Source: a virus (lineage: Duplodnaviria; Caudoviricetes). From it: 57,769 nt of DNA. This document shows, one piece after another, positions 11,904 to 51,981 of this stretch. The stretch spans positions 1 through 57,769 of the IMG/VR virus record IMGVR_UViG_3300006754_000018, one strand, 5' to 3'. The number at the start of each line of letters is the position of its first letter. The stretch's first letter is position 1. Both the position numbers and the translations under genes were made by a program. A model generated the notes under the pieces. The model was not told the DNA's origin and ran no database searches. It saw only the letters and a program-made list of their open reading frames with translations.

Positions 11904-12176
11904 TTCGCCTGGTTGTGCTGCTACCTGTCCTTCTAGATCAAACTTAGATGCAGCAGTATTTGATGCGTCAAGTTGATTGATTACTGCCCATGCTGCTTTA
12001 ATATCTTCTTGTTGTTTGAATAAAGCAGAATTTAACAATCCTTCCAAAGATGATATTCTCTCATCCATATTACCAACAGTTTGTGATAATACCTTCACTT
12101 GTTTGCGAAGACTATCAATACCTTGTAATTTTGCGTCTAGATTTGCTTCAGGGGAAGCAAGTGTTTCGTATGCCAT
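11889..12176 (-). CDS. Hypothetical coiled-coil protein
   Basis: ORF track, heptad pattern. Confidence 0.75.
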   Translation of the reverse strand: MAYETLASPEANLDAKLQGIDSLRKQVKVLSQTVGNMDERISSLEGLLNSALFKQQEDIKAAWAVINQLDASNTAASKFDLEGQVAAQPGEPPVG

Positions 12177-12198
12177 AACTAATCTTTAACTGATCTAT

Positions 12199-12420
12199 TT
12201 ATTGTGTAAGTTGTATGAATTTAGATGCGGATACTATTAACATAAAGGATAACATTGCCACTACATCATATGCTTTAGTTCTTACAAAGAATGGTATGCT
12301 TAATAAGCATGCTATTGCATGTAACATTGTACCATAAAATACATTTACATGCAATACAATAAAATAGGCAGATACGACCAAAACTGATCCTATCTGCCTA
12401 CTAATCGTCACTGTTCTCAT
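12199..12420 (-). CDS. Small membrane protein (about 3 TM)
   Basis: Hydrophobic segments, operon context. Confidence 0.7.
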   Translation of the reverse strand: MRTVTISRQIGSVLVVSAYFIVLHVNVFYGTMLHAIACLLSIPFFVRTKAYDVVAMLSFMLIVSASKFIQLTQ

Positions 12421-12422
12421 TA

Positions 12423-12611
12423 TTAATTGCCAGGAGGTGGTGCGTACATTTCAACAAGTAACCAATCATACTTATCAACCTTTGATTTACATGAAGGACA
12501 CTGAATTGAAGTCCAATCAAAATGATATATTTGATTTGTTACTTTACATATAGGGCAGGTAATTGGTTTCCCTTCTTTACCTGCCCTTGTGTGTTTTGTT
12601 ACTTTCTGCAT
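12423..12611 (-). CDS. Zinc-ribbon protein
   Basis: CPIC...CPSC. Confidence 0.75.
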   Translation of the reverse strand: MQKVTKHTRAGKEGKPITCPICKVTNQIYHFDWTSIQCPSCKSKVDKYDWLLVEMYAPPPGN

Positions 12612-12615
12612 ACAA

Positions 12616-13041
12616 TCACCTTAAGTAGAGATAACCACCTGCCCAGTCACAATTGGCAAGCATTGAATCACGTTGTCTGATGATTCGCATGTCATATCTA
12701 ACATGTTTCGCAGGTGATTTCCAAGAAGCAGGTTTATAAACTTCACCAGTCTCCTTATCAACAAAAGCATGAACACTTCCAACCCGACCATCATCAACCT
12801 GTACAATCTTATGATATTTCCTACCACTCTGGATGTGAAATTCCATATTAGATTCACCATCCTGTAACTTCTGGATTCTCTCCTCTAAGTATGGTGATGG
12901 TTCTCTTGAATTAGATCTCATTGCAGATCTTAATGAATAACCTCTATACTGTTCTTCAAGAGCAACACAGAGATCATTAGTCCATCTTAATACTCGTACT
13001 TTCATTTCTGCTTTAGCAGTGAGTGTGGATAATGATGTCAT
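12616..13041 (-). CDS. Conserved phage hypothetical protein (GRKYHKIV...SVHAFVDKETGEVYKPASWKSPAK)
   Basis: Recognisable family motif. Confidence 0.85.
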   Translation of the reverse strand: MTSLSTLTAKAEMKVRVLRWTNDLCVALEEQYRGYSLRSAMRSNSREPSPYLEERIQKLQDGESNMEFHIQSGRKYHKIVQVDDGRVGSVHAFVDKETGEVYKPASWKSPAKHVRYDMRIIRQRDSMLANCDWAGGYLYLR

Positions 13042-13066
13042 AAGTCATTTTCTTGATTACTTTATT

Positions 13067-13124
13067 AGTATAACCCATATTCTAGGGTTGTGACAATACT
13101 ATGTGCCACTTAATCAATTGACAC
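13067..13124 (-). promoter_or_regulatory. Early promoter: palindrome (13103-13124) plus TATACT
   Basis: GTGCCACTT-AATC-AATTGACAC. Confidence 0.7.
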
Positions 13125-13422
13125 CTATCCACACCTTAAATCCCCACCACAACAGAAAAGGTACAATCACTGCCCATAAATGGTAAAAGAGTGTTATCAA
13201 AAGAGTACCAAGTATAATCCAACCTGTTTCTGAACTAACAATACTTGTAACAAAAGGTGTTACTACATTAGGTCTATTCTCTGGAATTACATGAACATCA
13301 CTTGTACCATATCTTGCCCTTGCTTCACTTAACGCATCTTCTCTGTTAATACTTAAACTTTCAAAGGGAACATTTACCCTCCTATTAGTTTTAGTTGTTG
13401 TCCATAGTCTCCAGTTGAACAT
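13114..13422 (-). CDS. Hypothetical membrane protein
   Basis: C-terminal hydrophobic helices. Confidence 0.7.
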   Translation of the reverse strand: MFNWRLWTTTKTNRRVNVPFESLSINREDALSEARARYGTSDVHVIPENRPNVVTPFVTSIVSSETGWIILGTLLITLFYHLWAVIVPFLLWWGFKVWIGVN

Positions 13423-13425
13423 AAT

Positions 13426-14765: not shown

Positions 14766-14767
14766 AC

Positions 14768-15271
14768 TTACAAATAAACAAAGTTACCTATGATTCTACG
14801 ATTAGCATTAGTACATGTTGTACCACCATGTCTATATCTGTTTGGAAATATTATACATCTATTCGCCTTACTCTCTACCCTAGTACCATCATCAAAATAT
14901 GTATAACCATCATTGTCATTCATGTATAAGACACAAATATTAAGATTAACTGGTTTATCATCCTGATCTATTACATCATAGTGTAATGGTGACTGTACAA
15001 TCTCCGATGTCTTAGGTGTAGCATTAAACTTTACTCTTGTTAATCCCAATGGACTCAGGTGTGATACCACTGGTCTTATATGTTCCCAATAATCTGAACA
15101 CGGTTCGCAATCAGAATAGAACATATGAGAGTATTGAGGACATCCATCATAATCAATGGTACTATCACTATGAAACCAAGGCAATCTCTCACCCAAGAGA
15201 AACTCTTGAAGTTTTAAGAATATATCCTCAGGCAAGAAGTCATCATATAGAGTTACACTTTGATCCATCAC
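14768..15271 (-). CDS. 2OG-Fe(II) oxygenase
   Basis: HYD...NRCIIFPNRYRH...RIIGN. Confidence 0.85.
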   Translation of the reverse strand: MMDQSVTLYDDFLPEDIFLKLQEFLLGERLPWFHSDSTIDYDGCPQYSHMFYSDCEPCSDYWEHIRPVVSHLSPLGLTRVKFNATPKTSEIVQSPLHYDVIDQDDKPVNLNICVLYMNDNDGYTYFDDGTRVESKANRCIIFPNRYRHGGTTCTNANRRIIGNFVYL

Positions 15272-15277
15272 TCTATA

Positions 15278-15469
15278 CTAACCCCTTCTAATCTTAATGT
15301 CAAGGACATCCATCGCCTTATTCATATATTCAGAGGTATCCACAGTGGCATCTATTTGATTCTTGTCGTGGTCGTCACGATGTTTAAGATAGTTTTGATC
15401 GGGTCTCTTAGTTGGATCCAATATTATACTATCAATCTGTTTTACTATCTCCTTCATTACCCTTCTCAC
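15278..15469 (-). CDS. Hypothetical protein
   Basis: ORF track. Confidence 0.5.
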   Translation of the reverse strand: MRRVMKEIVKQIDSIILDPTKRPDQNYLKHRDDHDKNQIDATVDTSEYMNKAMDVLDIKIRRG

Positions 15470-15687: not shown

Positions 15688-17364
15688 ATGACTGAGACCA
15701 ATTATTCAGCAATTGAAGAACTTAAAGAAGAGGAGATGAATCTCAATCCAGATCTTTATAAAGGTTCTTTCACATATGCTCACTATACTACTGGACAGGA
15801 TAATCATCTGTACAAGAGTTTATCTACTGTTGGTGATTTCTATTGCAAAATATGGTATCGTAATGAAGAGTTCGATGACACCAGAGTAAATGGTGAAAGG
15901 AATGTTCTAATAGTTGGTACAAATGATGGTGATCCATTTATAAACGATGCTGAAACTATTCACAGATACCTTGACATGCCAGGAGCAGTATTTGTTAATG
16001 CACAATATAGACAACAACTAACTGACTTAACCTATGCCAACAGGGATCTCAAGGATTGTGTTAAATTCCTCTCTGCATGTATAGGTAAGTATAATGGTAA
16101 TAAAGATACAATCAAACTTGTAGATCCTAATAATAATGAACTAACATATACTATGGTGTATGATGAAAAAGCATTAACTTTAGAAGTTACTGATTCAGAT
16201 GCACCACTAACATTATCGGATACATTCCCCAACACAATGTCTGAGGATGCTCCTATTAAACAGTTTGGAAGTAATATCGCTGGTGAAGCATCATGGATGG
16301 ATGGTGCTATAAATAAGATTTACAATACCGTTCTAGGTAGTGGTTCTATTGGTTTTAATAACATAAAGGGTGACTTCCAAAGTGGAGATAACTCTATCAG
16401 TCAGTATTATAGAGGTGGTAATAATATTGGTAATATATCTCAGAATAATAATATACCTACTGGTGGAACAATAAGTTGGTCAAATTTCCGTAACGCATGT
16501 AATAAGATTGAAGCAAACTGTTCAGGAAACTTCGATCACTTAGAAGCACGTTGGGAGATATATGGAAACCAAGAATGGACTGCCAAAGTAAATAAGACTA
16601 TTATATTAAGTGGTCACTGTGGTACTAGAGATCAGAATCAACCTGCTCTTAGATTCAATAACTCTGGTAGTGGTAATACAATAGAATTTAAAATTATTGC
16701 TCAGGGTCGTGTATATGGTTGGGCAGGATCACCAGCGGGATATAACTTAAGTCAGGGGCCTGTAGATGGTAGTGGTACTCTGACTAACGGAGGTCCAGGC
16801 GGTTATGCAATACACATGGCATCATCCATCAAAATTGGGAACGAATGGAATGGTCAGATCGCTGGGGGCGGTGGAGGCGGAGGTAAAGGTGGAACGGGTG
16901 GTCAAGGTGGTTGTGGAGGACACGGCGGTTCTCGAAGATGCAATGGTTCATTCTGTTGGAACACGAAGAGAGTGTGTCACAGGAATGGTGGTGATGGTGG
17001 ATCGGGCGGTCAAGGGGGTCGAGGTGCATGGGGTTATGGATATAGTTGGGATTCCGCAAATGGAATCTGGTGCAATATTTCTGGTACTCACTTAACATCA
17101 CCAGGCGGAGGTCAAGGAGGTCAAGGCGGTAGAAGTCGTGGAGGTGGTTCAGGAGGAACTGGAGGTCAAGGAGGAAATGGTGGATCCCTAGAAAATGGCG
17201 GTCAAGGTGGAAGAACTGGTAATAAGGGTAATAATGGTGGTGGTGACGAACATGGATGTGGTTATCCCTGTAGTAGATCAGGATCCAACGGAAGTGGTGG
17301 AACCAATGGCGGTAGTGCCAGTGGCAAATATACTACAAGTCATACAGGTGGAAGATATACTTAG
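15688..17364 (+). CDS. Gly-rich tail-fibre adhesin-like protein (gp38-like polyglycine C-terminus)
   Basis: GGTISWSNF motif, then repeated GGxGG runs separated by Cys/aromatic loops. Confidence 0.65.
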   Translation: MTETNYSAIEELKEEEMNLNPDLYKGSFTYAHYTTGQDNHLYKSLSTVGDFYCKIWYRNEEFDDTRVNGERNVLIVGTNDGDPFINDAETIHRYLDMPGAVFVNAQYRQQLTDLTYANRDLKDCVKFLSACIGKYNGNKDTIKLVDPNNNELTYTMVYDEKALTLEVTDSDAPLTLSDTFPNTMSEDAPIKQFGSNIAGEASWMDGAINKIYNTVLGSGSIGFNNIKGDFQSGDNSISQYYRGGNNIGNISQNNNIPTGGTISWSNFRNACNKIEANCSGNFDHLEARWEIYGNQEWTAKVNKTIILSGHCGTRDQNQPALRFNNSGSGNTIEFKIIAQGRVYGWAGSPAGYNLSQGPVDGSGTLTNGGPGGYAIHMASSIKIGNEWNGQIAGGGGGGGKGGTGGQGGCGGHGGSRRCNGSFCWNTKRVCHRNGGDGGSGGQGGRGAWGYGYSWDSANGIWCNISGTHLTSPGGGQGGQGGRSRGGGSGGTGGQGGNGGSLENGGQGGRTGNKGNNGGGDEHGCGYPCSRSGSNGSGGTNGGSASGKYTTSHTGGRYT

Positions 17365-18458
17365 AAACTATAGTCAAGATCACCTAAACGCTTAAATGTA
17401 GTTGGTTGTTGTCCAGTCTTTGCACCAGATAATCCATATAACAATTCAGTCGTCAATCCATCCTTTGTTGCTTTAACTACAACATCACCAAAGGTTGCTT
17501 GAATGTTTTCGCATTGTTCCCATACTTCTAACTGTTCTCTCCAATCATCACTGATCCAATTATAATCCCTACTGTCATTAATAATCATACCTTTACCATC
17601 ATTATATGATGATTGATATGAATTAAATACTGGGAAATCATCCATTGGTTGAGAACCATATGGAGCATTATAACTATATGATGTTCCCATTTCAAATGAT
17701 AATTCCTTCTTCAATCCGTCAGCGTCAAACTCAACGTGTGGAGTTAATATACTATGTGGTGACTCTACTTGTGTTAAACCCAATGTACTAAACATTTGTT
17801 CGGAGTTCTTATAAGCATGACTATTCTTAGAACCACATACTTTATCAAGTATTCCTTCTACTTCTGAACTAACCCACGCTTCTTCATTCTTATTCAATCC
17901 TAACTTTATAGACTTAAGTTTTGTACTTATCCATAGAGTACCGAAACTCCAGTCATGTCTATCAGTCTCAATATTATCAAGTATCTCTAAGTATTCTCTT
18001 AACGGTTGTGTATTAGTATTACCAGTAACAGTAGCAGCAAGTTGGCATATTGCATCAATACTTGGTGTCAATACTGGAGGTTCATCCTGAAAATGTACCA
18101 ACTCCCACTCTGGAGTGGATGGATCATCAGCATCAAACCATAACGCTCTAGTACCATCAAGATACTTGAAGAGACTACAATCTAATACTGTTCCATCAAA
18201 TAATGTATACTGAGGTATTTCAGTTGCCATAAAGAATAGAAAAGCATACTTAGGGTTATCTACTTCAACTCCTGCCTTTATACTCTTCTTAAAATATACT
18301 CCTGAATCTCTACGTTTAGTATTAGGTTGATCCCATCCCAATTGAAACAATGCTGGATTAGCATCAACAATACTCCTGATATTTGACACATCAGTGTCAC
18401 TCATCAGTTTTGGATGACGATTAGCGTCTTTAGATATACTATCAAAATCTACTGTCAT
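17361..18458 (-). CDS. Hypothetical protein
   Basis: 365-aa ORF in operon. Confidence 0.8.
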   Translation of the reverse strand: MTVDFDSISKDANRHPKLMSDTDVSNIRSIVDANPALFQLGWDQPNTKRRDSGVYFKKSIKAGVEVDNPKYAFLFFMATEIPQYTLFDGTVLDCSLFKYLDGTRALWFDADDPSTPEWELVHFQDEPPVLTPSIDAICQLAATVTGNTNTQPLREYLEILDNIETDRHDWSFGTLWISTKLKSIKLGLNKNEEAWVSSEVEGILDKVCGSKNSHAYKNSEQMFSTLGLTQVESPHSILTPHVEFDADGLKKELSFEMGTSYSYNAPYGSQPMDDFPVFNSYQSSYNDGKGMIINDSRDYNWISDDWREQLEVWEQCENIQATFGDVVVKATKDGLTTELLYGLSGAKTGQQPTTFKRLGDLDYSF

Positions 18459-22800: not shown

Positions 22801-25800
22801 CAATTGTAGTAGAGATACCTGCATAGAAGTATGTTGCTCTACCTGCAAGATTATTCTCACCTAAACCTAATGTCTTAGCATTTGCACTAATACCTGTTCC
22901 GAATAGTCTTGCATCAGTAATTGAATATGAAGTATCAATACCAGCAGTAATAATACCAACATTACATACAATACTCCTTAAAGGAATATCAGACTCAACA
23001 TCATCAACAACTAGAAGTCTATCTTCAAATAATGGGTTCTTTGTTCCCCAAATCGTAAATACATTACCAGAAACCAATGTGTGGTTCTTGTTTACTCTAA
23101 TAGTTGCAATACCAGATGAACGATCTACATCAATCCATGTAACACCAGTACCAACGTTTGCAAGAGTATATGTTGCCTGTCTTCTATCATCTCTACCTGT
23201 AAAGTAAGGTGTTAGAGTTCTTGATGTTCCAATCTCAACAGAAACAGTCCTTGCAGTTGGGACATCTACAATTTTAAATGTACCATTCAACTCAGGAGTC
23301 TCAAATCCCTGTAATGTTAGACCATCACCCCGATTATTAAAGATTGAAGTAACAGAAACTACACCAGCGACTGTTGCATTACCTGCTGGGAAAGCAGATA
23401 CAGTCATGGTGTTACCTACACCATAAGTACAACCACCATCAATAAGTTCTACTCCAGTAATAGTACCAGCAGCAGAAACAGTAACCTCTGCAGCAGCATT
23501 CCTACCAGATAGTGCATTATTCTCAAGGTCTGCAGCATATATTACTGTTGCAATACCAGATCCATTATTATATCCAGAGCCTGGAGTGATTAGTTCTACT
23601 GATTTAATAGTATTCAGTCTATGCTCTACATCAGTATAAAGAGTAATAGTAGTATTACCTGTACCAGTAATAACTGCACCCGTTACAGCGAAACCTACCT
23701 GTTGTCCTTGCATGAAGTAAGATAATGCTTCACGAGTAACTGAATTCTTCTTGTCATTAGTTACAACTTCACCAATAACAGATGCACTTGAGTGAGTAAT
23801 TGCAGGTTGTGGATCAGACTCGTAGTTATCTCTATCCTGTTGTGGATATAAGTTCCTTACGTCCTGAGAGAAAGACTTCATGGATACACCATATCCAAGG
23901 TCTTTATCCAGTGGAATTGATCCACAAACGACGGTTAAGTTATATACCCCGTCTTGTCCAGATGTGCCTGGAACGTGCGGTCTAGACTCTTGTACCCTAT
24001 ACACAGAGAACGTATCAGCAGACTTAGATCTCTGTACTGTAGGCAGTGCATCAATCTGTTGTTGAGTAGTTCTTTGGTTGATCTGACTCTTAAATGCGCC
24101 AGGATCAGTTGATATACCAGCAACAGTAAATGACTTTGCAGTTGGAATAGTAGCAATGACATGTTCGCCATTATATCCTAGACCATATACACCAGTACTA
24201 TTATTGACACTATCAACACCTTTAATATCTACTAGGTCACCTATCTGTAACCTATGTTGTTTCTCAGTAGTGAATGTAAGAATCTGTGATCCAAATGTAG
24301 CATTCTTAAGAATCTTAACGTTCTTGAGTTGAGTTGGGTTACTCAAATCAGCACTCAAATAAGATGCACTACTTACACCAACAGTCTTAGATTCTTGTAG
24401 AATGAAACCAGGCTTAGGAGCACGAGCATTAGTATGTTCTTTAGGTAAAACATATCTCATTCTATAGAGTCTATCCAATAAGGATCTATTATCAACTCTA
24501 CGTTTGATGTATGTTGTACCTGTCTCTGAACCAATAACACCCAGACCAATTGTATTAAGTGCAGGGAATATTGTATTATAAGTTGTACTTGAGTGACCAA
24601 GAATATACCAGTTACTATTGGCAGCATCCCATTGAACTGGATGGCCTGGATCGCCTGGGTTCTTATCACTAACTGTAGATCTAACTGTTAATTTACCACC
24701 ATTGTTGGAAAGTCCAGTTATAGGTCTCCTAGAAGCAGCATCGTTAAATGTAGATGCCAACTGGATTCTATCAGCAGCAAGATTACCACCAGCGATAGCA
24801 AAATATACCTTATCATTTACTATACCATTTGGTGTCTCACCAGTATTACTAAAGACTCTAATCTTCTCACCATTAACTAACTGGTGATTAAAACTGAATT
24901 GAAGTACGTTAGAAATAATAGCATTAACACCAGAGTTTCTAATTACTTGATACTCTTTCTTAGATGATGTACCAATACCACTAGGAACCTGCATGAGAAC
25001 TGGAGTCTCATAAGTTTCTTGTACTGCCTGACCAGACAGAGTATTAACCAAACTTAAGTATAATGTTTCACCCTTTCTAGAACCAACCCTAAAGGAATCG
25101 ACTTCTGCTGGAGGAACAATCTCTTCACTATTATAACTGTTAAGATATAACCTATCAGTTACACCAACACCAATAGTCTTTGCTACATCAATTGTTAACC
25201 AAGATGAAGTACTATCATCATTCTGTAGTTCTCTTGGTGGAACAATATGAGTAATATAACCAACGTCATCTCTATCAAATGATTGTGGTCTGAATCCTGA
25301 TGCCTCAAGAGCGGTCTGACCAAAGTTAGAGTTAGAGTTCGTAATTGAAGCGTCACCACCTCTTTCTGCATGGAAGTGACGTGCATATGCAATAGCGAAA
25401 ACAGAAACCAACTGAACAACAGCGTTGTTCCTTACTCTCATGTGAGAGGTTTCATAGTTTGGTTTGTAAATTGCCCTAGAGTTGGCGTGCAATGGTTTAT
25501 CTGATTCTGATACAGTAGTTGTATCATTAAAGATTGCAGTTGTAGGATTGTAAAGAACGAACGCATTGTCATCCTTCTGAATGGAAATACCAGTGAACTG
25601 GGCACAAACCATAGATTTGAAACCAGTTGCCTTGTCTCCATCACAATCCAAACCATTCATACCATAAACTGATCTTAATGAACAGTTAAAGACATATGGA
25701 GATGCAGATCCTACAGTATCAGGTTCAACTATAACAGATGAGTTCTGAATTTCTTGTGCGGTAGGTAGTGCATTGCCAGGTGTGGCAGGAGTAACAAACC

Positions 25801-28305: not shown

Positions 28306-28575
28306 GGATCAGTTGGTTAACAAGGTTGATCTAAACCCCGATTGCCCCTTAGGCAGTAGCGAGTTCGCTAGTGCGGGCAAATTCTCTTGTGAGAACACGA
28401 GAGAATGCTACGATGTTATTCGCAGCGGTGTCGATGTCTTTAGCATCTGTGTTTTGCTTATCCAAGCAGGTTTCAGTCATGTCCCGTATACCCTGTCGAA
28501 ACCTTGGCACCCCCTTGCAAAAGTGGAGGTGAGGGGAGTCGAACCCCTGTCCAGAATGTCGATTACACCACCTAC
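28306..28575 (-). ncRNA. ssrA: Circularly permuted (two-piece) tmRNA
   Basis: T-arm AGGGG-TTCGACT-CCCCT plus acceptor 3' strand CACCTCC-A (28548-28524), 9-nt intervening segment, 5' strand GGGGGTG-CCAAGGTTTCGAC (from 28514) forming G3.U70; tag frame ...ANNIVAFSR...ELATA* ending 28349; outer ends approximate. Confidence 0.93.
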
Positions 28576-29506: not shown

Positions 29507-30135
29507 TTTTTAGCTGGCAAAGGGTTCTTTCTCATAAATTTATAAACTAAACTGGATCTCAATCCACGATATGTTTCGTTTGGTGGAGTTCCATGATGGT
29601 CTATATTACCCTTGAATAATGCAACTCGGCCTGGTGCAGGATCTACTCCTTGCCATTCATCATTTAGTTTAATCTTGAATTGGCCACCCCACTCTGGTTG
29701 CCAATGTTTATTAACATAGTAAGCGAAACTTATTCCATTATCACACTCACAATCCTTATGTGGAAAAGTGTTATGTATATATTGTTGTCCATTGATTAGT
29801 ATCTCACCCAGTTCTAAGTCGATATCCATTGTACCAAGTACGGCACCTGCAAGCATCTCAAAACAACTGTCTTTTGCAATTTCCGACTTAGGTGGGAATA
29901 TGGATTGCTTTAGAGCACCAACTTCGGGCCATGTAGGATCTGCTCCTATATCACGACCATCCGTTGGATATTCACTGGTATGTCCATAGAACCAACTATA
30001 ACTGGTCATTACAAGATTATCAACGTAGTTAATAAACCAATGTGGAAATAGGTTATCAACAACATATACCTCATCCTTAGATAAGTCATAGTTCGACCAA
30101 TCTAAGAATTCCTTATTTGCATCAATGTGTATCAT
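29503..30135 (-). CDS. 2OG-Fe(II) oxygenase
   Basis: HKD...W.PEWGG...PGRVALF...H...R.S. Confidence 0.9.
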   Translation of the reverse strand: MIHIDANKEFLDWSNYDLSKDEVYVVDNLFPHWFINYVDNLVMTSYSWFYGHTSEYPTDGRDIGADPTWPEVGALKQSIFPPKSEIAKDSCFEMLAGAVLGTMDIDLELGEILINGQQYIHNTFPHKDCECDNGISFAYYVNKHWQPEWGGQFKIKLNDEWQGVDPAPGRVALFKGNIDHHGTPPNETYRGLRSSLVYKFMRKNPLPAKK

Positions 30136-41789: not shown

Positions 41790-42047
41790 TTATCCCTGTG
41801 CTCTATCACCTTTCTGTGTATATTCATCTTGTTTCGTAAAGAACTCACTCATGCTTGATTGACAATCAGGTGGTTCAGGGTACTTATATCCTTTCATCTT
41901 TCTCCATTTTCCATGCATTGCACCCATCATCCAGCTAGCTGCAAGACTCTTGGGACCATTCTCAAGCAGATCTAACTCATACTTGCTAGAGGTATAACCC
42001 TTATACTCTTCTCTCCAATTAGAATCGTCAAATGGTGGTTTGTTCAT
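41790..42047 (-). CDS. Conserved cyanophage hypothetical protein
   Basis: DDSNWREEY...LLENGPKSL motif; start taken at MNKPP. Confidence 0.75.
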   Translation of the reverse strand: MNKPPFDDSNWREEYKGYTSSKYELDLLENGPKSLAASWMMGAMHGKWRKMKGYKYPEPPDCQSSMSEFFTKQDEYTQKGDRAQG

Positions 42048-42558
42048 AGGTGTAAGTCTTTTTCCCAACTTTAGTGTGTCCATAGGGGCCAGTTTTATTT
42101 GGCCTTACTTGTCCGAGTTTAGAACCTTTATTAGAAACTCCAGTCGAGGTCTTTTTAGCTCTCTTGGCAGTAGGATGTAAAGTAGCTTTGCCTTTACCCT
42201 TCTTAGTGATTACTGAATCTTGGTTGTATTCTTTACCAAGACGTTTCATCCGTTTCTTAAAGGTCTTATACTTTTTCTTAGGAGCATTAACAACAACAGA
42301 TGGTTCACTCACTGTTTTTTTGTTGCCTTTATCATCCTTTTCAGGATATTCTCCTTTAACTTCCTTATATCCATAGCCGTGACTACGGATCTTCTGACGT
42401 AACTCCTTGTTACTCTTTTTATTCTCCTTTTTTGACTTATCACCTCTTGTTGCAGTTAGAACTGCCGTGTTGCGACTCTTGGAATGAGAAACCACACGAG
42501 ACATTCCACCCTCAGTAAGAGAGTTACATTCTAACACAAATTCGATGAAAGTCTTCAT
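42028..42558 (-). CDS. Basic protein with T4 capsid-targeting-like N-terminus (possible internal head protein)
   Basis: MKTFIEFVLE; late promoter ATAAATA at 42591-42597. Confidence 0.7.
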   Translation of the reverse strand: MKTFIEFVLECNSLTEGGMSRVVSHSKSRNTAVLTATRGDKSKKENKKSNKELRQKIRSHGYGYKEVKGEYPEKDDKGNKKTVSEPSVVVNAPKKKYKTFKKRMKRLGKEYNQDSVITKKGKGKATLHPTAKRAKKTSTGVSNKGSKLGQVRPNKTGPYGHTKVGKKTYTYEQTTI

Positions 42559-42593: not shown

Positions 42594-43538
42594 TTATGCC
42601 AGACGGTTCTCATTAGCAGTGTTACTGGTTGGTGCTCCAGATGATGGTGGGAGTGCTGATCTGGCAGATCCACTTAAAACAGTCTGACCATCATGAGTTG
42701 TACCTTGTGAATTAGCCCACGTACTATCACCTTTATTATTATCAGGTTGTACGATAACGTACCTATCATATTTGAAATTAACAGTAACTTGAAGGACCTG
42801 AGCATCCCCATAAGATAACTGAATACTATCAACACTTTCTGGGAAAGCATTAACAAACTGATATGATAGTGGATTTGGTCTCTCTGGTGGGGTCAATGGT
42901 GTTACAACTCCAGGCCTATTAATCATTTTACCCATATCACCCACCATCAATCCTTCATCCTTATTTCTTGCACCAGCCCCTATATTCCTTTCAAATTTAG
43001 TAACAGTAATATCTCTCTTATAACTATGTGGATACCTAAATCTATGAAATCCTTGTCTATCCTTCTGATTGGCATATCCAATTGGGTTACCTTGAACATT
43101 TCTCATACCACCATTAGCGGCATATACAGGATTAATAAAATTAATCCATTCTTGAAATAATCTAAGAACTTGATAATCAGCTGAAAGATAAAACTTTAAA
43201 TTTAAATCAACATAAGCTCTTGACTGTGCAAAGAATTCAGTTACACCCTGTCTTGCTCCAGACTCTTCAATTGAAGCTAAATTAGTACCAGGCAAACTTG
43301 CTTCTGAACATAAAAAATCAAACCTCGCTGCAGTACTCTTATTGAATACTCCAGAAGTAACAAGCCAAGTGTTTAAATCTGTATTAGCACTACCATTATT
43401 CTTGTCAGATAGACCCAATGACACCTTAAATGTATTGGATAAAGCAGGAGACCCTAAAAAATTCTGAAACGATTGAGCCGCTATCCCTTCTCCACCACCA
43501 TCATTGGTTATATTAGCGAGTAAGTTACTTTCTGCCAT
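42594..43538 (-). CDS. Baseplate tail-tube initiator (gp54/gp19-like)
   Basis: LCSEASLPG...FQEWINFI...Y.F.NAFP.S.....LSY...VTVNFKY; start taken at MAESN. Confidence 0.75.
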   Translation of the reverse strand: MAESNLLANITNDGGGEGIAAQSFQNFLGSPALSNTFKVSLGLSDKNNGSANTDLNTWLVTSGVFNKSTAARFDFLCSEASLPGTNLASIEESGARQGVTEFFAQSRAYVDLNLKFYLSADYQVLRLFQEWINFINPVYAANGGMRNVQGNPIGYANQKDRQGFHRFRYPHSYKRDITVTKFERNIGAGARNKDEGLMVGDMGKMINRPGVVTPLTPPERPNPLSYQFVNAFPESVDSIQLSYGDAQVLQVTVNFKYDRYVIVQPDNNKGDSTWANSQGTTHDGQTVLSGSARSALPPSSGAPTSNTANENRLA

Positions 43539-43571: not shown

Positions 43572-44015
43572 ATGTATATGGCTTATAAGGGAAAATATAA
43601 ACCAAGACACACCAAAAAGTATAAAGGAGACCCAACCCAGATAATTTATAGATCACTCTGGGAAAGGAAATTCATGGAATACTGTGATCTGAATGAGAGT
43701 ATAAGTCAGTGGCAATCAGAAGAATTCTGGATTCCATATAAGAGTCCTCTGGATAATAAGATGCATAGGTACTTCCCTGACTTCTTTATTAAATACAAGG
43801 ACTCTAAAGGAAAGAAGAGATCAGTTGTAATAGAAGTCAAACCAAAGAAACAACTATTGATGCCCAAAAGAAATCCCAAGAAGAGAACAAAAGCCTGGGC
43901 ATATGAAGTACAAACATATGTTGTCAATCAAGCAAAATGGGAAGCAGCAAAGGATTACTGTGATAATAGAAAGTATGAGTTCAAAATCATGACAGAGGAT
44001 GACCTAGGGATATGA
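43572..44015 (+). CDS. gp4: Head completion nuclease gp4 (TnsA-like)
   Basis: KYKGDPTQIIYRSLWE...YFPDF...IEVKP...NQAKW. Confidence 0.95.
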   Translation: MYMAYKGKYKPRHTKKYKGDPTQIIYRSLWERKFMEYCDLNESISQWQSEEFWIPYKSPLDNKMHRYFPDFFIKYKDSKGKKRSVVIEVKPKKQLLMPKRNPKKRTKAWAYEVQTYVVNQAKWEAAKDYCDNRKYEFKIMTEDDLGI

Positions 44016-44512
44016 TTGCTGAAACAATAAAAAAGAGAGCTGGTAAAAAGAACAAAAGTGGAGATTGGTATGTCTCTCAATTGGAAGATGAATTAGCTCC
44101 TCTACAAGATAAAAATATCAGTTTTGTTGATACTGGAGGGATAACTCTTGGTAGCATGTTCTTCTTCTCTTATGGTGCAAAATTTCCAGAAAGATATGAA
44201 TTTTGGGATGTACAACCACTAGCAGTTGCACTCAGTTTTTATAAAGATGGATTCCTAGGTGCGAACTTACACTACATAAATCCCCAATATAGAGACGCAG
44301 TTGCAAGAAGCCTACTAAATAGTGGTAGCGAAGGTGCAACGACTGTACCTAAAAACACTTTGCACAAATACCTATACTCTGGTATAGGTAATCTATATCA
44401 AGTTCCTGATGGTGAAGATTGGGCGGAGATATCCCTTCTCCCGACTGAAAAATTTATGAATAACAAAGGAATGAAATATCCTAAACATAAAGCCTGGAAC
44501 TGGAAAAAATAA
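44012..44512 (+). CDS. gp2: DNA end protector gp2-like
   Basis: F.Y.AK...WD..PL...GFLGANLHY. Confidence 0.8.
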   Translation: MIAETIKKRAGKKNKSGDWYVSQLEDELAPLQDKNISFVDTGGITLGSMFFFSYGAKFPERYEFWDVQPLAVALSFYKDGFLGANLHYINPQYRDAVARSLLNSGSEGATTVPKNTLHKYLYSGIGNLYQVPDGEDWAEISLLPTEKFMNNKGMKYPKHKAWNWKK

Positions 44513-47060: not shown

Positions 47061-47978
47061 CTACTCTTCCGCTAACTGCTGGAAGTATTTAAGCGCATCG
47101 TCTTCTTCATCTGTATTAGATGTTGCAGCAACAGGAACTTTACTTAGTTCATCATCTGTTGCAACAGGAGCCGCAACCTCACGATGATTGTCTTCATCAG
47201 CAACCTCTGGATCCTGATAACGTAATGAACCAGTTGGTAGTTTAGAACCAAGAACTGTGTCAAGACGCTTCTTAAGAGCATCATACTCTTTGAACTGATC
47301 AGGAGCAACGAATTCACTTAGGTCATTAACCTTATCGTAAATTCCTTCAAGTGCCTTATCATCATCTAGTAGTGCTTCTACCTTACCGAACTCTGAACTA
47401 TCATAGTTCCAGAACCCTGCAACCTGTTTGATCTTCAACTTGAAGTTAGCACCTTTCCAGAAATCAAATGGATTGATTGGATCCTCATCCTCAAATTCTG
47501 GTTGCATTGAAGCAGTAATCTTATCAAAGATCTTCTTACCAAACTTGTAGATGAAGACTTTACCTTCATTCTCAGGATTGGAAGAATCCTTAACAACATA
47601 TACATTTGCATAGTAAGAAAGCTTACGCTTCTGCTTACGTGCAATATCCTTATCTGATTCCCGACCACTGTTCCAGAGACTACGATTTAGTTCTCCAACA
47701 GGATCATCTTTACTTACTGTGGTCAAAGAATTCTCAATATACCAACCGCCTGGTCCTTGAAAAGCATGGCTCCAAACCTGAACCCAAGGAAGTTCCATAT
47801 TAGCATGTTGAGGAAGGAACCTAACAACGGCATAACCGTTACCCGCCTTATCAACTGCTGGTTTCCAGAGTCGTTCGTCAGTATTATTGCCCCTCTCGTT
47901 GAGTTTCTCAACTTTCTTCATCAATCTCTCTGTGAGAGACCCCGAGCGGGATTGTTTTTTTAAGTCAGCAAATGACAT
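47061..47978 (-). CDS. gp32: Single-stranded DNA-binding protein gp32
   Basis: DERLWKP..DK.GNGYAV.RFLP...YIEN.LTT...GANFKLKI; acidic tail. Confidence 0.97.
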   Translation of the reverse strand: MSFADLKKQSRSGSLTERLMKKVEKLNERGNNTDERLWKPAVDKAGNGYAVVRFLPQHANMELPWVQVWSHAFQGPGGWYIENSLTTVSKDDPVGELNRSLWNSGRESDKDIARKQKRKLSYYANVYVVKDSSNPENEGKVFIYKFGKKIFDKITASMQPEFEDEDPINPFDFWKGANFKLKIKQVAGFWNYDSSEFGKVEALLDDDKALEGIYDKVNDLSEFVAPDQFKEYDALKKRLDTVLGSKLPTGSLRYQDPEVADEDNHREVAAPVATDDELSKVPVAATSNTDEEDDALKYFQQLAEE

Positions 47979-48402: not shown

Positions 48403-48411
48403 GGTTAAAAA

Positions 48412-49635: not shown

Positions 49636-50396
49636 AAAGAAAGAGCGAGTTTAGTAACCAAATAGTTTCTTACTAAACCAGATCGAACAATATCATCAAG
49701 ACCAAATTCAACAACACCGAAATCATCTTCCATGATCTCAATGATACGTTTAAAGTCTAGGATTCCATTCTTCTCATTGGATTTAGTGAGATCTGTTTGT
49801 GTAGAGTCACCGCAAAATACTATTTTACAGTTATCTCCTACTCTTGTTATTATACTATCTAACTCGTGAAAGTTCAAGTTTTGCATTTCATCAACAAGAA
49901 CAATGCAATTATCAAGTGTTGTTCCTCTAATAAATGAAGTACTCCAGAAGGAAATAGTCTCCTGTGTTTTAAGATTTCCATAGAGCATCTCGAAATCTGC
50001 ATCTGTAGGCATCTCAAACATGTACTTCACCATGTTTTTGTAAGGTATCTGATAAAGTGAGGACTTGTCTTCATGATCGCCAGGAAGAAAGCCAATTTCA
50101 CGGGTACTAACAAGAGACCTAACAATATAAATTTTTTCGTAAGGCGTAGTTTCATTTAGAACGTCCTTAAGGGCCAGATATAGACTGATAAATGTCTTAC
50201 CAGTTCCAGCAGCTCCATAGGCAAAAAGATTCTTACCTTTGGCATAATAATCAAATAAAATCTTCTGATTATCAGTAATTGGTTCTACAGGAACCAACAT
50301 ACCATCATTAATAGGTTTCTTGCGACGCATTTGTTTCGCAGTCATTCCCACTCCAATAGGATCAGAGTTACTTGATGCTCTTTTCCGTCTTGCCAT
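49632..50396 (-). CDS. phoH: PhoH-like ATPase
   Basis: GAAGTGKT, IGFLPG, FIRGTT, DEMQN, GD..Q.DL, DIVRS. Confidence 0.97.
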   Translation of the reverse strand: MARRKRASSNSDPIGVGMTAKQMRRKKPINDGMLVPVEPITDNQKILFDYYAKGKNLFAYGAAGTGKTFISLYLALKDVLNETTPYEKIYIVRSLVSTREIGFLPGDHEDKSSLYQIPYKNMVKYMFEMPTDADFEMLYGNLKTQETISFWSTSFIRGTTLDNCIVLVDEMQNLNFHELDSIITRVGDNCKIVFCGDSTQTDLTKSNEKNGILDFKRIIEIMEDDFGVVEFGLDDIVRSGLVRNYLVTKLALSL

Positions 50397-50671
50397 TATC
50401 CGTTCCTAGTATTGATGCCACGACCTGCAAGTCTTCCTTGAATACCAGCAGACTTCTCCGCTTTCTTCAAGACCTCAGACCAGCCAGGATTCTTATTGTG
50501 AAGTTTATCTCTCCACTCACCAACTTCTCCAACGCCTGGACATGTACTAGGGTCAGAGAAGTCACGAGTCCAATTGGGATTGTCTTCCTTCCACTGATCC
50601 CAAGCATGAACACTCATAATAACTTCCTTTGTCTCACCAGTTTCCGTATTTTTTACAGGATAAGTAGCCAT
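50396..50671 (-). CDS. FmdB-like small protein
   Basis: MATYPVKN.ETGE...W.EVL; usual position upstream of phoH. Confidence 0.75.
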   Translation of the reverse strand: MATYPVKNTETGETKEVIMSVHAWDQWKEDNPNWTRDFSDPSTCPGVGEVGEWRDKLHNKNPGWSEVLKKAEKSAGIQGRLAGRGINTRNG

Positions 50672-51327
50672 TAATCTTCATCCTCAACGGTTATCCATTC
50701 CAAAGCTTCCGACACTATTGGAAATGTTTCGACAAAAACATCTCTACATGATTCTGCAATCTGCATATGTTCTTTCTGTGTTCCATGTGCAGAACGTAAA
50801 TTTATATAGTGTATCCAAGAACGACAAGATCCAGTCATATAGATCTTAGTGGGAGTACAAAGGGGAAGTACCATTCTAGCGCACTCCTTTGCCACACCAA
50901 TCTCTAACATCTGACCATATAAGTTAGTAGCAGAACTGAACAAAGTCTTCATCTGTCTTTCTAACTTATCCACAATTTCAGGATCCAAATCATCAATAGA
51001 GTTCTGACGATTCTTCACATCTTGTCTTCTAAGTTCTGGTAATTCAATCTTACCTAAGTCACTAGTACTAGCATACCTTTGAGAAAACTCTTGGAATGTA
51101 AAAGATCTATGACGTAGTATCTGTGCAGCAATCGCACGAGTTGTCTCAATCTCTAGTGTCATAGAGGATTGTTCAAAAACTGACCAATGATTATGTTTGA
51201 TGCAGTATCTAAGTAATCCAGCAAATTTATCATTCTCTTGATTAGACGGATTAGAAACTCTGGCAATATACGCCATCAGTTTTTCCGCATCAGGAGTTAC
51301 TGATACCAATTGTACATTTTTTGCCAT
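50671..51327 (-). CDS. thyX: Flavin-dependent thymidylate synthase
   Basis: HWSVFE, QILRHRSFTFQEFSQRY, ECARMVLP, HGTQKEH; start taken at MAKNV. Confidence 0.95.
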   Translation of the reverse strand: MAKNVQLVSVTPDAEKLMAYIARVSNPSNQENDKFAGLLRYCIKHNHWSVFEQSSMTLEIETTRAIAAQILRHRSFTFQEFSQRYASTSDLGKIELPELRRQDVKNRQNSIDDLDPEIVDKLERQMKTLFSSATNLYGQMLEIGVAKECARMVLPLCTPTKIYMTGSCRSWIHYINLRSAHGTQKEHMQIAESCRDVFVETFPIVSEALEWITVEDED

Positions 51328-51331
51328 ACAG

Positions 51332-51499
51332 TTAGTCGGTGTATCCGTCATCGTCGTCGCATGAGTCATAATGTGGTTCTTTTAATTGAGTCCGAATCTT
51401 GGTGGTATATGCATCCACATCAGAATATACTTCCGATTCTAACACATTTACCAGAGATTTCAAGTTTTTGACAACGGCTTTAAGTTTTTCCTTTTCCAT
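51332..51499 (-). CDS. Small conserved cyanophage protein (MEKEKLK..V.NLK.LV..LESEVYSD)
   Basis: Manual translation, 55 aa. Confidence 0.7.
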   Translation of the reverse strand: MEKEKLKAVVKNLKSLVNVLESEVYSDVDAYTTKIRTQLKEPHYDSCDDDDGYTD

Positions 51500-51501
51500 T
51501 A

Positions 51502-51981
51502 CTAGATATAGTAGTTGAAGTTTATTAACACCCTTTTGGCTGTATCAGTGGAAGTTACTCCACGATGCTTTTCATTTGAATCAAATGTAAGCATACGGTT
51601 TTCAACACTGTCAAATTTCATACCATTTTCAAATTCCGTGTATCCATTATTGGTATTAATATAATAGATGGAAGTTATACAGTCGTCAACATCCGAATGA
51701 AACGCATGTCCAACAGGCTGAGGTGTTTTCATATTTAGATTAGCTTTACTCCTAACAAATGCCGTTGCATCGAATTTCTGGAATACAGGATCCAAGAGCT
51801 CCCAACATCGGCTAACAGGTGCATAATCCAAATATAAACCATGAACAAACTGGAAATGTCCATCCCCAGGCATCACAACACCATCTATACAATTCCAAGG
51901 AATCTCCATACCCATAAAGACATCCTGAATATCTCTAAATTGGTTAGGAGGAAGGAAATTCTCAGTTATTTTATATTTCAC
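51502..51981 (-). CDS. 2OG-Fe(II) oxygenase
   Basis: HSD...YINTNNGYT.F...NRMLTFD...H...RVLINFNY. Confidence 0.9.
   Translation of the reverse strand: MKYKITENFLPPNQFRDIQDVFMGMEIPWNCIDGVVMPGDGHFQFVHGLYLDYAPVSRCWELLDPVFQKFDATAFVRSKANLNMKTPQPVGHAFHSDVDDCITSIYYINTNNGYTEFENGMKFDSVENRMLTFDSNEKHRGVTSTDTAKRVLINFNYYI

Follow-up and report, generated by a model that had tools for sequence, protein, structure and literature searches.

Why should a phage genome keep the sequence CCWGG only where a G precedes it or a C follows it? The question is raised by a marine T4-like cyanomyovirus near Synechococcus phage S-SSM7, whose whole 57.8-kb contig was analysed and is called the window below. The original prediction, made by eye, had counted about 44 CCWGG sites, all with a 5' G or a 3' C, had found none in positions 1-11900 and no CCGG at all, and had explained this by a conflict between restriction and modification. 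Exact counting over the window gives 44 CCWGG sites, the first at 11908 and the last at 51866, and no CCGG; every one (44 of 44) is preceded by G at -1 or followed by C at +1, a state called flanked here. The positions listed earlier were also right, 24644 being 24645. For a GC content of 37.0%, base composition alone predicts that 33.6% of CCWGG sites would be flanked, in line with the third that had been expected.

Flanked and unflanked CCWGG in the window

The complete set spans 11907..51871 (no strand assigned), each site being flanked on one side or on both. Twenty-six sites have the 5' G only (11908, 12430, 15979, 19643, 20208, 23580, 23967, 24099, 24645, 24654, 25776, 26610, 29630, 30416, 32554, 33192, 33713, 36421, 39961, 43894, 44493, 44569, 47749, 50080, 50484 and 50535), 17 have the 3' C only (16795, 17101, 19588, 19989, 24408, 26583, 27409, 30179, 31172, 33575, 34301, 37760, 39170, 40201, 42910, 43288 and 51866), and one has both (32503). 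A codon-preserving shuffle had been proposed as a check, and we ran 1000 synonymous-codon shuffles within 84 called ORFs, taken from a crude caller that keeps the longest ORFs that do not overlap, with a minimum of 60 aa. Against a shuffle expectation of 54.0±4.0 CCWGG sites in total (44 observed), flanked sites number 44 versus 16.6±2.9 (shuffle maximum 27), unflanked sites 0 versus 37.4±4.0 (minimum 25) and CCGG 0 versus 34.6±5.0 (minimum 19). The avoidance seen in the window is exact, and its status as a real depletion against a codon-preserving null is confirmed. By reading frame, 39 of the 44 sites lie in phase 0, where CCW GGN encodes Pro-Gly, five lie in phase 1 (GCC TGG four times, GCC AGG once) and none is intergenic. 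In a variant strain represented by contigs of four runs, position 29629 changes from G to C, and site 29630 would lose its flank there unless it is altered again among 52 further differences.

Codon choice at Pro-Gly

Since CCGG is banned, Pro-Gly must be written CCW-GGN and each Pro-Gly contains a CCWGG site, and it is because of this total ban that CCWGG is the most visible case. Such sites would be made safe either by GGC, a rare Gly codon in the window (74 of 1275 Gly codons), or by a preceding NNG codon. GGC is used at Pro-Gly in 22 of 22 cases after a codon ending in A, C or T, and in 1 of 17 after a codon ending in G. The original prediction had named Pro-Gly codon-pair usage as a possible full explanation, and this did not hold: phages that do not follow the rule write Pro-Gly with GGC at its background rate (21 of 319 Pro-Gly, 6.6%), and relatives use CCW-GGD freely. 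Clade-wide, flanked CCWGG outside Pro-Gly (phase 1) is neutral (19 versus 22.0±4 expected), while unflanked CCWGG is lost in phase 1 (0 versus 29.0 expected) and in phase 2 (1 versus 91.8). A translational preference for CCW-GGC, unconnected with restriction, would be in keeping with the 39 of 44 sites that are Pro-Gly codon pairs. It is scarcely credible given the dependence of GGC on the last base of the preceding codon, the losses in both other phases, the free use of CCW-GGD by relatives and the same rule at CTGCAG and other frame-independent sites (see below). Pro-Gly codon choice is an escape route and not the cause of the flank pattern.

The purge extends into the proteome, where Pro-Gly has an observed/expected ratio of 0.70-0.81 versus 1.07-1.10; roughly one in four of the phage's Pro-Gly dipeptides has gone. 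Positions 1-11900 and 51901-57769 contain no Pro-Gly dipeptide versus 5.0 and 3.2 expected, and a deficit of that kind is absent from the small ORFs of three relatives. We read these site-free window ends as composition or chance and not as a separate feature.

The same exemption at other sites

Four further sites, CTGCAG, CCATGG, CCTNAGG and CYCGRG, behave like CCWGG in the clade, their survivors being G-flanked apart from three unflanked CCATGG. In a clade pool of the window, G001, S-SSM7 and G002 (148,273 codons, 60 shuffles), flanked and unflanked counts were 58 versus 74.1 and 0 versus 88.0 expected for CTGCAG, 26 versus 21.8 and 3 versus 47.5 for CCATGG, 23 versus 17.9 and 0 versus 54.7 for CCTNAGG, and 18 versus 22.9 and 0 versus 55.0 for CYCGRG. 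Within the window all seven CTGCAG are flanked (7 versus 7.0 expected; unflanked 0 versus 8.1, minimum 3): four have the 5' G, at 4977..4982 (atgCTGCAGtct), 43328..43333 (tcgCTGCAGtac), 53215..53220 (tcgCTGCAGgct) and 54831..54836 (gtgCTGCAGaga), two the 3' C, at 23488..23493 (cctCTGCAGcag) and 23530..23535 (ggtCTGCAGcat), and one both, at 53203..53208 (ttgCTGCAGctt). Both CCTNAGG, at 15226..15232 (tatCCTCAGGcaa) and 28347..28353 (gccCCTTAGGcag), have the 3' C (unflanked 0 versus 5.5 expected, minimum 2), as do both CYCGRG, at 47941..47946 (gacCCCGAGcgg) and, as CTCGAG, at 54299..54304 (cttCTCGAGcct; unflanked 0 versus 5.2, minimum 1). None of these eleven sites is assigned a strand.

Sites beginning with CA receive no such rescue in the clade pool: CACGTG is absent in both classes (11.2 flanked and 14.9 unflanked expected), and CAATTG is reduced to 12 flanked and 30 unflanked (64.8 and 117.7 expected). 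Among 6-bp palindromes with an internal GCY only GCCGGC is fully purged, and it includes the banned CCGG; eleven other 6-bp palindromes are at or near zero. CCGG, CGCG and TTCGAA are purged outright in the window, and S-SSM7 purges many more palindromes, AT-rich ones included (TTCGAA, ATGCAT, TACGTA and CAATTG). Two observations count against a mark on GCY: CCGG is zero everywhere, GCCGG thus having no rescue, and GGGCC/GGCCC is absent from S-SSM7 despite containing GCC. In S-SSM7 and G002 the rule has exceptions, 13 CCWGG and 3 CCATGG without a flank; every one of them (16 of 16) overlaps GGWCC and needs a second protection.

Taken together, these footprints probably reflect restriction-site purging combined with a protective modification of the C:G pair in 5'-GCY-3' (equivalently 5'-RGC-3'). 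We infer from sequence statistics that the modification exists, that its context is GCY and that the phage encodes it. Picocyanobacterial hosts would exert the restriction pressure, and many short palindromes have been purged outright. At sites starting with C-C or C-T the purge has hit only copies without G before the outer C, and copies that read G|C-Y on one strand or both stay at the frequency expected without selection. Virion DNA of the clade would carry the mark on the C:G pair of 5'-GCY-3', and where this pair is the outermost of a restriction site cleavage would be blocked, one modified half-site being enough. The earlier idea of rescue by a GC-context modification of the outer C is supported by the exemption shared with CTGCAG, CCATGG, CCTNAGG and CYCGRG, and by a published phage C5-MT specificity with an identical context, GC[C/T] (PMC8256090).

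Distribution of the rule among related phages

The closest relative of the window, L006, keeps the rule (48 of 48 CCWGG flanked), and a quick gp32 tree places the rule-keepers in three or more clusters. Two near-complete cyanomyovirus genomes, G405 and G406, lack the exemption: 48 of 269 and 57 of 247 of their CCWGG are flanked, leaving 221 and 190 unflanked, and their flanked and unflanked CYCGRG are depleted equally. T7-like cyanopodoviruses (16 loci) purge CCWGG whatever the flank, with 1 flanked versus ~71 and 4 unflanked versus ~157 expected; of their 150 Pro-Gly, 148 are written CCC/CCG-GGN. The purged sets vary among close relatives, GGWCC being missing in some and GGSCC in others. The depletion is lineage-specific and not a universal codon bias. 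The rule also co-occurs with one allele class, of 161-170 aa, of the DNA end protector family protein gp2 (in the window at 44012..44512, plus strand; phrog_429, E 4.6e-34), found in 14 of 17 rule-keeping loci versus 1 of 88 others; when gp2 is located by synteny, this type is present at 15 of 16 rule-keeping loci. In all classifiable loci without the rule, the gp2 place is taken by a different ORF, at most 27% identical.

Host systems and candidate modifying enzymes

Of 401 genomes sampled from the Prochlorococcus family, 45 have C5-MTases and two (G195 and G282) have an island of Vsr, a Dcm-like MTase and MzaB-E. This Dcm-like MTase shares 50% identity with E. coli Dcm over the variable region and scores 445 bits with the PADLOC model of DrmMII, the DISARM methyltransferase that serves as a CCWGG marker. 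The MZA gene set is complete in the L178 operon (PADLOC: MzaB 3.9e-73, MzaC 7.6e-110, MzaD 5.5e-11, MzaE 2.6e-78; Pfam: HATPase_c_3, Z1, DUF4420 and AIPR). Of 16 Z1 matches, 12 are no more than about 10 kb away from one of the listed C5-MT matches, and one of 12 neighbourhoods examined has a SinI-type endonuclease (predicted specificity GGWCC) adjoining the C5-MT. A search for EcoRII-C (PF09019) gave 0 of 401 host genomes and is uninformative, the control genomes also giving 0. The host island is a plausible source of the anti-CCWGG selection. Purging of CCWGG by restriction, as first proposed, agrees with the depletion at synonymous sites, its absence in related phages and this Dcm-like MTase next to Vsr/MzaBCDE.

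The search for a C5 or N4 methyltransferase that had been suggested found none in complete S-SSM7 or three rule-keeping contigs: PF00145, PF01555, PF01702 and PF12851 had no match there by profile search, PF00145 (C5 cytosine methyltransferase) matching 0 of 4 records. A purpose-built C5-MT profile run with --max gave a best E of 1.2 and nothing below E=1, its controls reaching 2e-64 to 6e-111. PF12851 (TET/JBP) matched 0 of 5 records at E<=0.1, with uncertain sensitivity, as the control was weak and matched in 1 of 14 genomes. The complete S-SSM7 genome yielded no TGT, C5/N4 methyltransferase or TET; among its genes are many for 2OG-Fe(II) oxygenases, glycosyltransferases and carbamoyltransferases. 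The window carries a gene of the SAM lyase family (42028..42558, minus strand; PF23780, E 3.2e-16, 59.9 bits with a cut-off of 28), whose homologues were found in the window and L006 only, among the window and 85 loci. With this predicted lyase, a SAM-dependent mark would be less likely here.

The sole recognisable DNA modifier is a Mom-family gene in S-SSM7, G002 (96% identical) and G001 (74%), with matches to PF25680 (E 2.5e-32 and 9.4e-36) and PDB 8bv8 (E 2.7e-8). It lies outside the window, whose end corresponds by synteny to position 8731 of G001, ~6.9 kb from mom there. Its fit to the G-flank rule is poor, since the rule is set by the G|C junction with no adenine at a constant offset. 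GTGCAC, CACGTG, GACGTC and GTCGAC are purged although they carry SAS adenines, against protection by Mom, and unrelated Mom-bearing phages are inconsistent (two lineages rule-like, two purging both classes, two without purge). A tentative proposal is that S-SSM7-like phages make an undescribed SAM-independent GCY mark with an enzyme outside the DNMT, N4/N6-MTase, TET and TGT families, perhaps a member of the Mom family whose target has shifted from adenine to cytosine N4, perhaps an unrecognised protein, and that the genome has co-evolved so that every remaining restriction site sits under the mark. If true, this would explain why a mark defined at the dinucleotide level is enough to protect the entire genome.

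Alternative explanations

Host nucleases might simply fail on G:C-flanked sites, an HCCWGGD enzyme for CCWGG being one example, with no phage modification at all. Three-of-four-base specificities such as GDGCHC exist, either flank suffices as it would for a homodimer needing two good half-sites, and both the SAM lyase in the window and the lack of a modifying enzyme in the searched S-SSM7 and contigs would fit. We hold this very improbable, because five unrelated site families would have to share one 'not G' requirement; the same exemption at four further C-initial sites makes one common modification far better than five G-averse nucleases. In addition, cyanopodoviruses purge G-flanked CCWGG fully, and the GGWCC-overlap exceptions would still demand modification. 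It is also very unlikely, if a shade less so, that the purging agent is not host restriction but the phage's own host-DNA-degrading nucleases, whose targets it avoids or protects in itself. Several nucleases are indeed encoded (TnsA-like and PD-(D/E)XK in the window, HNH endonucleases in S-SSM7 and G001), and CCGG and CGCG are abundant in GC-rich hosts. Against this, AT-rich palindromes are also purged in S-SSM7, close relatives purge different sets, as variable host systems would give, and hosts encode systems predicted to match; the change would concern the agent only, and the G-flank exemption would still demand modification.

A real GCY mark could instead be made by a host methyltransferase fixed in the clade's host population and exploited by the phage. 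This we think unlikely, although no phage methyltransferase gene was found and hosts have diverse C5-MTases, many linked to Z1/DUF4420 systems. Any C5-MT is present in just 45 of the 401 sampled host genomes, the exemption is missing from other myoviruses and podoviruses that share this host group, and a SAM lyase should hinder host methylation of progeny, yet the window and L006 follow the rule at 44/44 and 48/48 sites. By the account in Burke et al. (PMC8256090), moreover, GpC[C/T] is not known for other C5-MTs in REBASE.

Comparison with known systems

Avoidance of restriction-site palindromes is a general phenomenon in phage genomes, and the pattern described here shares with it the purging of short palindromes by synonymous change in lineage-specific sets. 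It differs in being conditional on one flanking base, common to five sites, with flanked copies neutral. No paper that connects CCWGG with site avoidance in cyanophages came up in our literature searches. The multigene defence linked to Dcm and Vsr, in which MzaBCDE accompanies a cytosine MTase, appears by homology as the same set in hosts G195 and G282, only two sampled genomes, with both CCWGG specificity and restriction of unmethylated CCWGG being predictions.

Mu Mom (momylation of adenine; PMC13219725, PMC7261163) resembles the present case in its gene family and in giving a bulky, motif-limited, anti-restriction mark of the kind we propose; its SAM-independent chemistry would be compatible with the window's SAM lyase. 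According to PMC13219725 it acts on adenine in SAS, whereas the footprint here requires the C:G pair of GCY. M.CviPI of chlorella viruses, cited in PMC8256090 as methylating every GpC, is likewise a viral cytosine mark with dinucleotide-level GC context; here, by contrast, GCA and probably GCG give no rescue, and a C5-MT gene was not found.

The closest context is that of the phage C5-MT/TET (5mYOX)/glycosyltransferase hypermodification pathway, in which, as Burke et al. 2021 (PMC8256090) describe it, TET-associated C5-MTs have GpC[C/T] specificity and clade I enzymes do not target GpCA. Our rescue context, GC[C/T], matches this published specificity, and GCA is untargeted in both. Both would involve a post-replicative, motif-limited mark in phage DNA, here read from a genome-wide footprint and not from chemistry, and the S-SSM7 oxygenases, glycosyltransferases and carbamoyltransferases recall that pathway's gene content; C5-MT and Tet_JBP, unlike in that pathway, were not found in complete S-SSM7 or related contigs. 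The authors of bioRxiv 10.1101/2023.12.21.572611 doubted that a mark limited to GpC could protect a genome. The footprint described here suggests that such a mark can protect a genome, because restriction sites are kept only where the mark would fall.

Flank rule at CCWGG sites in the window

Exact counting found 44 CCWGG sites in the window, the first at position 11908 and the last at 51866, and all 44 have G at position -1 or C at position +1 (hereafter flanked). This bears out the original prediction, made by eye, of about 44 sites, all of them flanked and none within positions 1–11900, and the flanked share predicted from base composition (33.6%) agrees with the one third proposed there. 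When the counts were compared with 1000 synonymous-codon shuffles inside each of 84 ORFs that we called ourselves, the codon-preserving control named with that prediction, the shuffles gave 54.0 ± 4.0 CCWGG in total, with 16.6 ± 2.9 flanked (maximum 27; 44 observed) and 37.4 ± 4.0 unflanked (minimum 25; none observed). CCGG, which had been described as absent, was indeed found 0 times against 34.6 ± 5.0 by shuffle (minimum 19). Unflanked CCWGG has therefore been abolished and flanked CCWGG is enriched about 2.7-fold, and the flank pattern is confirmed as real and far beyond chance. Other palindromes absent from the window or scarce in it are CGCG (0), TTCGAA (0) and GCGC (10).

Spread of the rule among cyanophages

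T4-like cyanophages rank among the major killers of Prochlorococcus and Synechococcus. The record IMGVR_UViG_3300006754_000018 is one contig of 57,769 bp (37.0% GC; CheckV completeness estimate 25%), all of it in the window. Its fiber gene (2325 aa) has 78.6% nucleotide identity to Synechococcus phage S-SSM7 over 74% of its length, and its ORFs include gp32, baseplate and tail genes, PhoH, ThyX, transaldolase, heme oxygenase, CP12 and about ten 2OG-Fe(II) oxygenases; the window thus represents part of the genome of a T4-like cyanomyovirus. Positions 13043 to 57744 are collinear with the IMG/VR contig G001 (67–83% identity), and the phage sequence is present in marine metagenome runs from 16 studies. 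Two clade-specific proteins without a family match (15688–17364, plus strand; 17361–18458, minus strand) lie within a 2OG-Fe(II) oxygenase gene cluster, and the 558-aa member of the pair has a long Gly-rich C-terminal region.

The same rule, with sites kept wholly or nearly so as flanked copies, is seen in the complete S-SSM7 genome (232,878 bp; 196 of 206 CCWGG flanked; no CCGG) and in the contigs G002 (134 kb; 112/115), G001 (55 kb; 48/48) and G003 (35.5 kb; 30/30), the last from a different gp32 cluster. Among 80 loci around gp32 homologues, all close relatives keep the rule and most others do not, as exemplified by L071 with 1 of 32 CCWGG flanked; in two near-complete genomes lacking the rule, the flanked counts are 48 of 269 and 57 of 247. 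A quick gp32 tree splits the rule-keepers into at least three clusters, and the longest rule-keeping contig outside the S-SSM7 clade is 35.5 kb. One locus, L018, is intermediate (18 of 27 flanked, both classes interspersed). Another, L286, has a close mom homologue yet carries six unflanked CCWGG clustered at 1298–3242, which may be a mosaic segment. In contigs of four public runs, from a variant strain, window position 29629 reads C instead of G, which would turn the site at 29630 into an unflanked cgcCCTGGtgc, barring a second change there (52 further strain differences are unlisted).

An allele class accompanies the rule at gp2, the DNA end protector (44012–44512, plus strand, in the window; phrog_429, E = 4.6e-34). 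Across L006–L085 and L366–L423, the class of 161–170 aa occurs in 15 of 16 rule-keeping loci and in none classed as lacking the rule, which have a different ORF at that place, mostly of 114–150 aa and at most 27% identical; the neighbouring gp4 is not divided in this way. With this class common to nearly all the rule-keepers, the scatter on the gp32 tree may overstate the independence of their clusters. The association itself may stem from a genome module inherited from one ancestor, from linkage to the causal gene, or from a functional role.

Pro-Gly coding as an escape route

Pro-Gly codon pairs (CCW GGN) account for 39 of the 44 window sites, and the other five are GCC-TGG or GCC-AGG. The alternatives CCC-GGN and CCG-GGN would create CCGG, which is banned, so that CCWGG is unavoidable at a Pro-Gly, and all 39 in the window are so written. 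If the codon before Pro has A, C or T as its last base, glycine is GGC in 22 of 22 cases, compared with 74 of 1275 glycine codons in the window overall and 1 of the 17 cases in which that codon ends in G. In 16 rule-keeping sequences (146,460 codons; 337 Pro-Gly), the preceding codon ends in G in 39%, and elsewhere GGC outnumbers the other glycine codons by 196 to 9. The corresponding figures for 21 loci lacking the rule (319 Pro-Gly) are 14 G-ending codons (4.4%) and 21 GGC after Pro (6.6%), the latter matching the 6.4% background. Thus codon choice, tied to the preceding base and unbiased where the rule is lacking, is an escape route and not the cause, and the explanation held out as an alternative by the original prediction, a bias arising wholly from Pro-Gly codon-pair usage, fails. 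The arms race reaches the proteins, where Pro-Gly dipeptides are down by about 25% and a rare codon is imposed: in ORFs above 130 aa, Pro-Gly observed/expected is 0.70–0.81 in four rule-keeping genomes versus 1.07 and 1.10 in two others.

Four further sites under the same rule

A blind scan for an either-flank rule, run over all short palindromes, picked out G at -1 for CCWGG and for CTGCAG, CCATGG, CCTNAGG and CYCGRG. In the window, S-SSM7 and 12 further clade loci, compared with loci lacking the rule, the flanked fractions were 380/390 against 49/404 for CCWGG, 47/50 against 48/108 for CTGCAG, 25/28 against 12/33 for CCATGG, 30/30 against 9/44 for CCTNAGG and 15/15 against 2/14 for CYCGRG; the window alone has 7/7 CTGCAG, 2/2 CCTNAGG and 2/2 CYCGRG flanked. 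S-SSM7 contains 27 PstI, 21 NcoI, 18 Bsu36I and 8 AvaI sites. Codon-preserving shuffles within the CDS of four clade genomes (148,273 codons) gave flanked and unflanked expectations of 74.1 and 88.0 for CTGCAG (observed 58 and 0), 21.8 and 47.5 for CCATGG (26 and 3), 17.9 and 54.7 for CCTNAGG (23 and 0) and 22.9 and 55.0 for CYCGRG (18 and 0). Flanked copies of these four sites are therefore at neutral frequency, and so too is flanked CCWGG outside Pro-Gly (19 versus 22.0 expected).

Every rescued site begins with C-C or C-T. CA-initial sites that are under selection gain no such rescue, with flanked and unflanked counts of 0 and 0 for CACGTG (11.2 and 14.9 expected) and of 12 and 30 for CAATTG (64.8 and 117.7 expected). 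Of the 6-bp palindromes that have GCY inside them, GCCGGC, which contains the banned CCGG, is the only one fully purged; of those lacking an internal GCY, eleven are absent or nearly so. Judged from these counts, the common denominator of the rescued sites is the base pair at the 5'-G-C-Y-3' step.

The 233 kb of S-SSM7 wholly lack ATGCAT, TACGTA, TTCGAA, CAATTG, CACGTG and CGTACG, and likewise GACGTC, GGTACC, GTCGAC, GTGCAC, ACGCGT and TGCGCA. The set of restricted sites differs among subclades, since CCTAGG shows no constraint in the window (0 of 9 flanked, at 7988–46385) or in G001 (0/5) and is largely or entirely flanked in S-SSM7 (10/13) and G002 (7/7).

Predicted marking systems in the host group

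The psbA of S-SSM7 is closest to Prochlorococcus psbA (85–89%). We found C5-methyltransferases in 45 of 401 sampled genomes of the Prochlorococcus family, most commonly in a Z1/DUF4420 neighbourhood; Z1-domain genes occur in 16 of the 401, 12 of them within about 10 kb of a C5-methyltransferase among the matches listed. Two genomes, G195 and G282, carry Vsr, a Dcm-like C5-methyltransferase, MzaB, MzaC (Z1), MzaD (DUF4420), MzaE (AIPR) and an integrase; in the Prochlorococcus-size G195 the island spans 4234–14318 of L178 (G195:C1:342000-360000). The methyltransferase of both is 50% identical to E. coli Dcm through the variable region, and two other Z1-linked methyltransferases are not Dcm-like. 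Z1/DUF4420 systems also stand beside Vsr and C5-methyltransferases of 463–689 aa in L181, L182 and L183 (genomes G135, G308 and G212), where the variable region is not Dcm-like. A SinI-family (GGWCC-type) endonuclease with an adjoining C5-methyltransferase lies at 852–2670 of L176 (E = 3.2e-40) in G069, a picocyanobacterial genome of Prochlorococcus size with 33% GC. From these genes, CCWGG-type marking systems are predicted to exist in the host group, which does not imply that they drive the purge.

Search for the modifying enzyme

The original prediction had envisaged a methyltransferase as one source of the modification, and here it found no support: the C5- and N4-methyltransferase profiles PF00145 and PF01555, together with PF01702 (TGT) and PF12851 (TET), matched nothing in complete S-SSM7 or three or four related records. 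Our own C5-methyltransferase profile, made with 11 enzymes from hosts and E. coli, gave no match below E = 1 in six-frame translations, and four held-out methyltransferases scored 2e-64 to 6e-111. The S-SSM7 'putative methyltransferase' SSSM7_257 was rejected as a DNA modifier, as its atlas neighbours are sugar O-methyltransferases and it has no Pfam match. For 85 S-SSM7 ORFs, a rule-keeping contig has a homologue but neither G405 nor G406, near-complete cyanomyovirus genomes lacking the exemption, does. A Pfam scan of 59 of them (ORFs of at least 70 aa lying within a single locus, other than four scanned before) yielded oxygenases, sugar enzymes and unassigned proteins, with no DNA modifier besides Mom. 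A heme oxygenase query had 0 matches in the first scan of the genome contigs.

The sole recognisable DNA modifier is this Mom-family protein (SSSM7_282; PF25680, E = 2.5e-32), which G002 and G001 share and which G405 and G406 lack. The G001 copy (E = 9.4e-36; 2.7e-8 against the Mu Mom structure 8bv8) lies about 6.9 kb past the point matching the window end. Of 23 contigs with a Mom copy at least 87% identical and at least five CCWGG, 21 keep the rule strictly, all within one clade. The same signature appears in an unrelated Mom-bearing lineage, L293 (flanked and unflanked 12 and 0 versus 6.7 and 11.1 expected), and in an unrelated group at 35% identity (22 and 3 versus 13.9 and 11.3). Further Mom-bearing phages have purged both classes or neither, making Mom an inconsistent predictor in unrelated phages. 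According to PMC13219725, momylation uses Gly-tRNA, not SAM, which fits a phage with a SAM lyase of its own. A gene of that family (PF23780, E = 3.2e-16) lies at 42028–42558 on the minus strand of the window, between a baseplate gene and a tail-tube-like gene; among the 85 loci compared, a homologue occurs in L006 alone, the closest relative of the window, with none at the syntenic place in S-SSM7. Mu Mom modifies adenine in SAS, whereas here no adenine keeps a fixed distance from the G|C junction, and four purged sites contain SAS adenines, which counts against Mom. The Mom-family protein is thus a candidate only.

A putative protective mark at GCY

One putative modification on the C:G pair of GCY (RGC on the other strand), on either base as far as the footprint can tell, would cover all five sites, provided that a single modified half-site suffices to block cleavage. 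Five nucleases, each rejecting a flanking G, would account for the same counts in place of one mark, and we consider this implausible. The genome would have been edited so that its surviving restriction sites lie under the mark. These patterns support the original proposal that an overlapping GC-context modification spares otherwise purged CCWGG, and would generalise it to a GCY context and five site families. General GpC methylation was rejected, as GTGCAC, ATGCAT (in S-SSM7), TGCGCA and ACGCGT are purged though their GC precedes A or G. So were 7-deazaguanine at GGC, as in phage 9g (the TGT/DpdA family is found in 0 of 4 records), and overlapping GGCC methylation, which requires GG when most flanks are a single G. 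GCY trinucleotide depletion, sought as a cost signal, showed no clear difference.

The protection appears to be a property of the phage. In 16 T7-like cyanopodovirus loci (77,822 codons), flanked CCWGG number 1 (about 71 expected) and unflanked 4 (about 157 expected); CCGG is retained, and Pro-Gly is CCC/CCG-GGN in 148 of 150. Many of the cyanopodovirus loci L198–L260 have no CCWGG and normal CCGG, for example 0 and 23 in L254 (21.5 kb) and 0 and 26 in L258. In G405 and G406, flanked and unflanked CYCGRG are depleted alike. Either these phages have met other nucleases, or they lack the mark. Within the clade, GCCGG is not rescued despite its GCC, and S-SSM7 wholly lacks GGSCC, though GCC-containing, and tolerates GGWCC. 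The 13 unflanked CCWGG of S-SSM7 and G002, like the three unflanked CCATGG of S-SSM7, overlap GGWCC without exception, which suggests that GGWCC has a second protection in that subclade. Three GGNCC profiles were found among the rule-keepers: GGSCC absent and GGWCC present (S-SSM7 [L001–L005], L009, L010, L015, L016), the reverse (L007, L008, L011, L032, L040, L064), and both present (the window, L006).

With nothing but sequence as its basis, the footprint predicts that DNA is modified in a GCY context in the cultured S-SSM7, which has no known cytosine-modifying gene, and flank-conditional site statistics could likewise reveal modification motifs in uncultured viruses. As a general strategy, a cheap mark of narrow specificity combined with genome-wide editing of site contexts would give broad protection. 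A preprint on GpC-limited phage hypermodification (10.1101/2023.12.21.572611) doubts or leaves open whether such a mark protects the genome; the footprint suggests how a narrow mark can protect a whole genome. PMC8256090 describes C5-methyltransferases of phages that act together with TET enzymes of phages and 'mainly recognize a GpC[C/T] consensus', GpCA being no target for some of them; the GpC[C/T] motif described there matches the GCY context to which the footprint points here.
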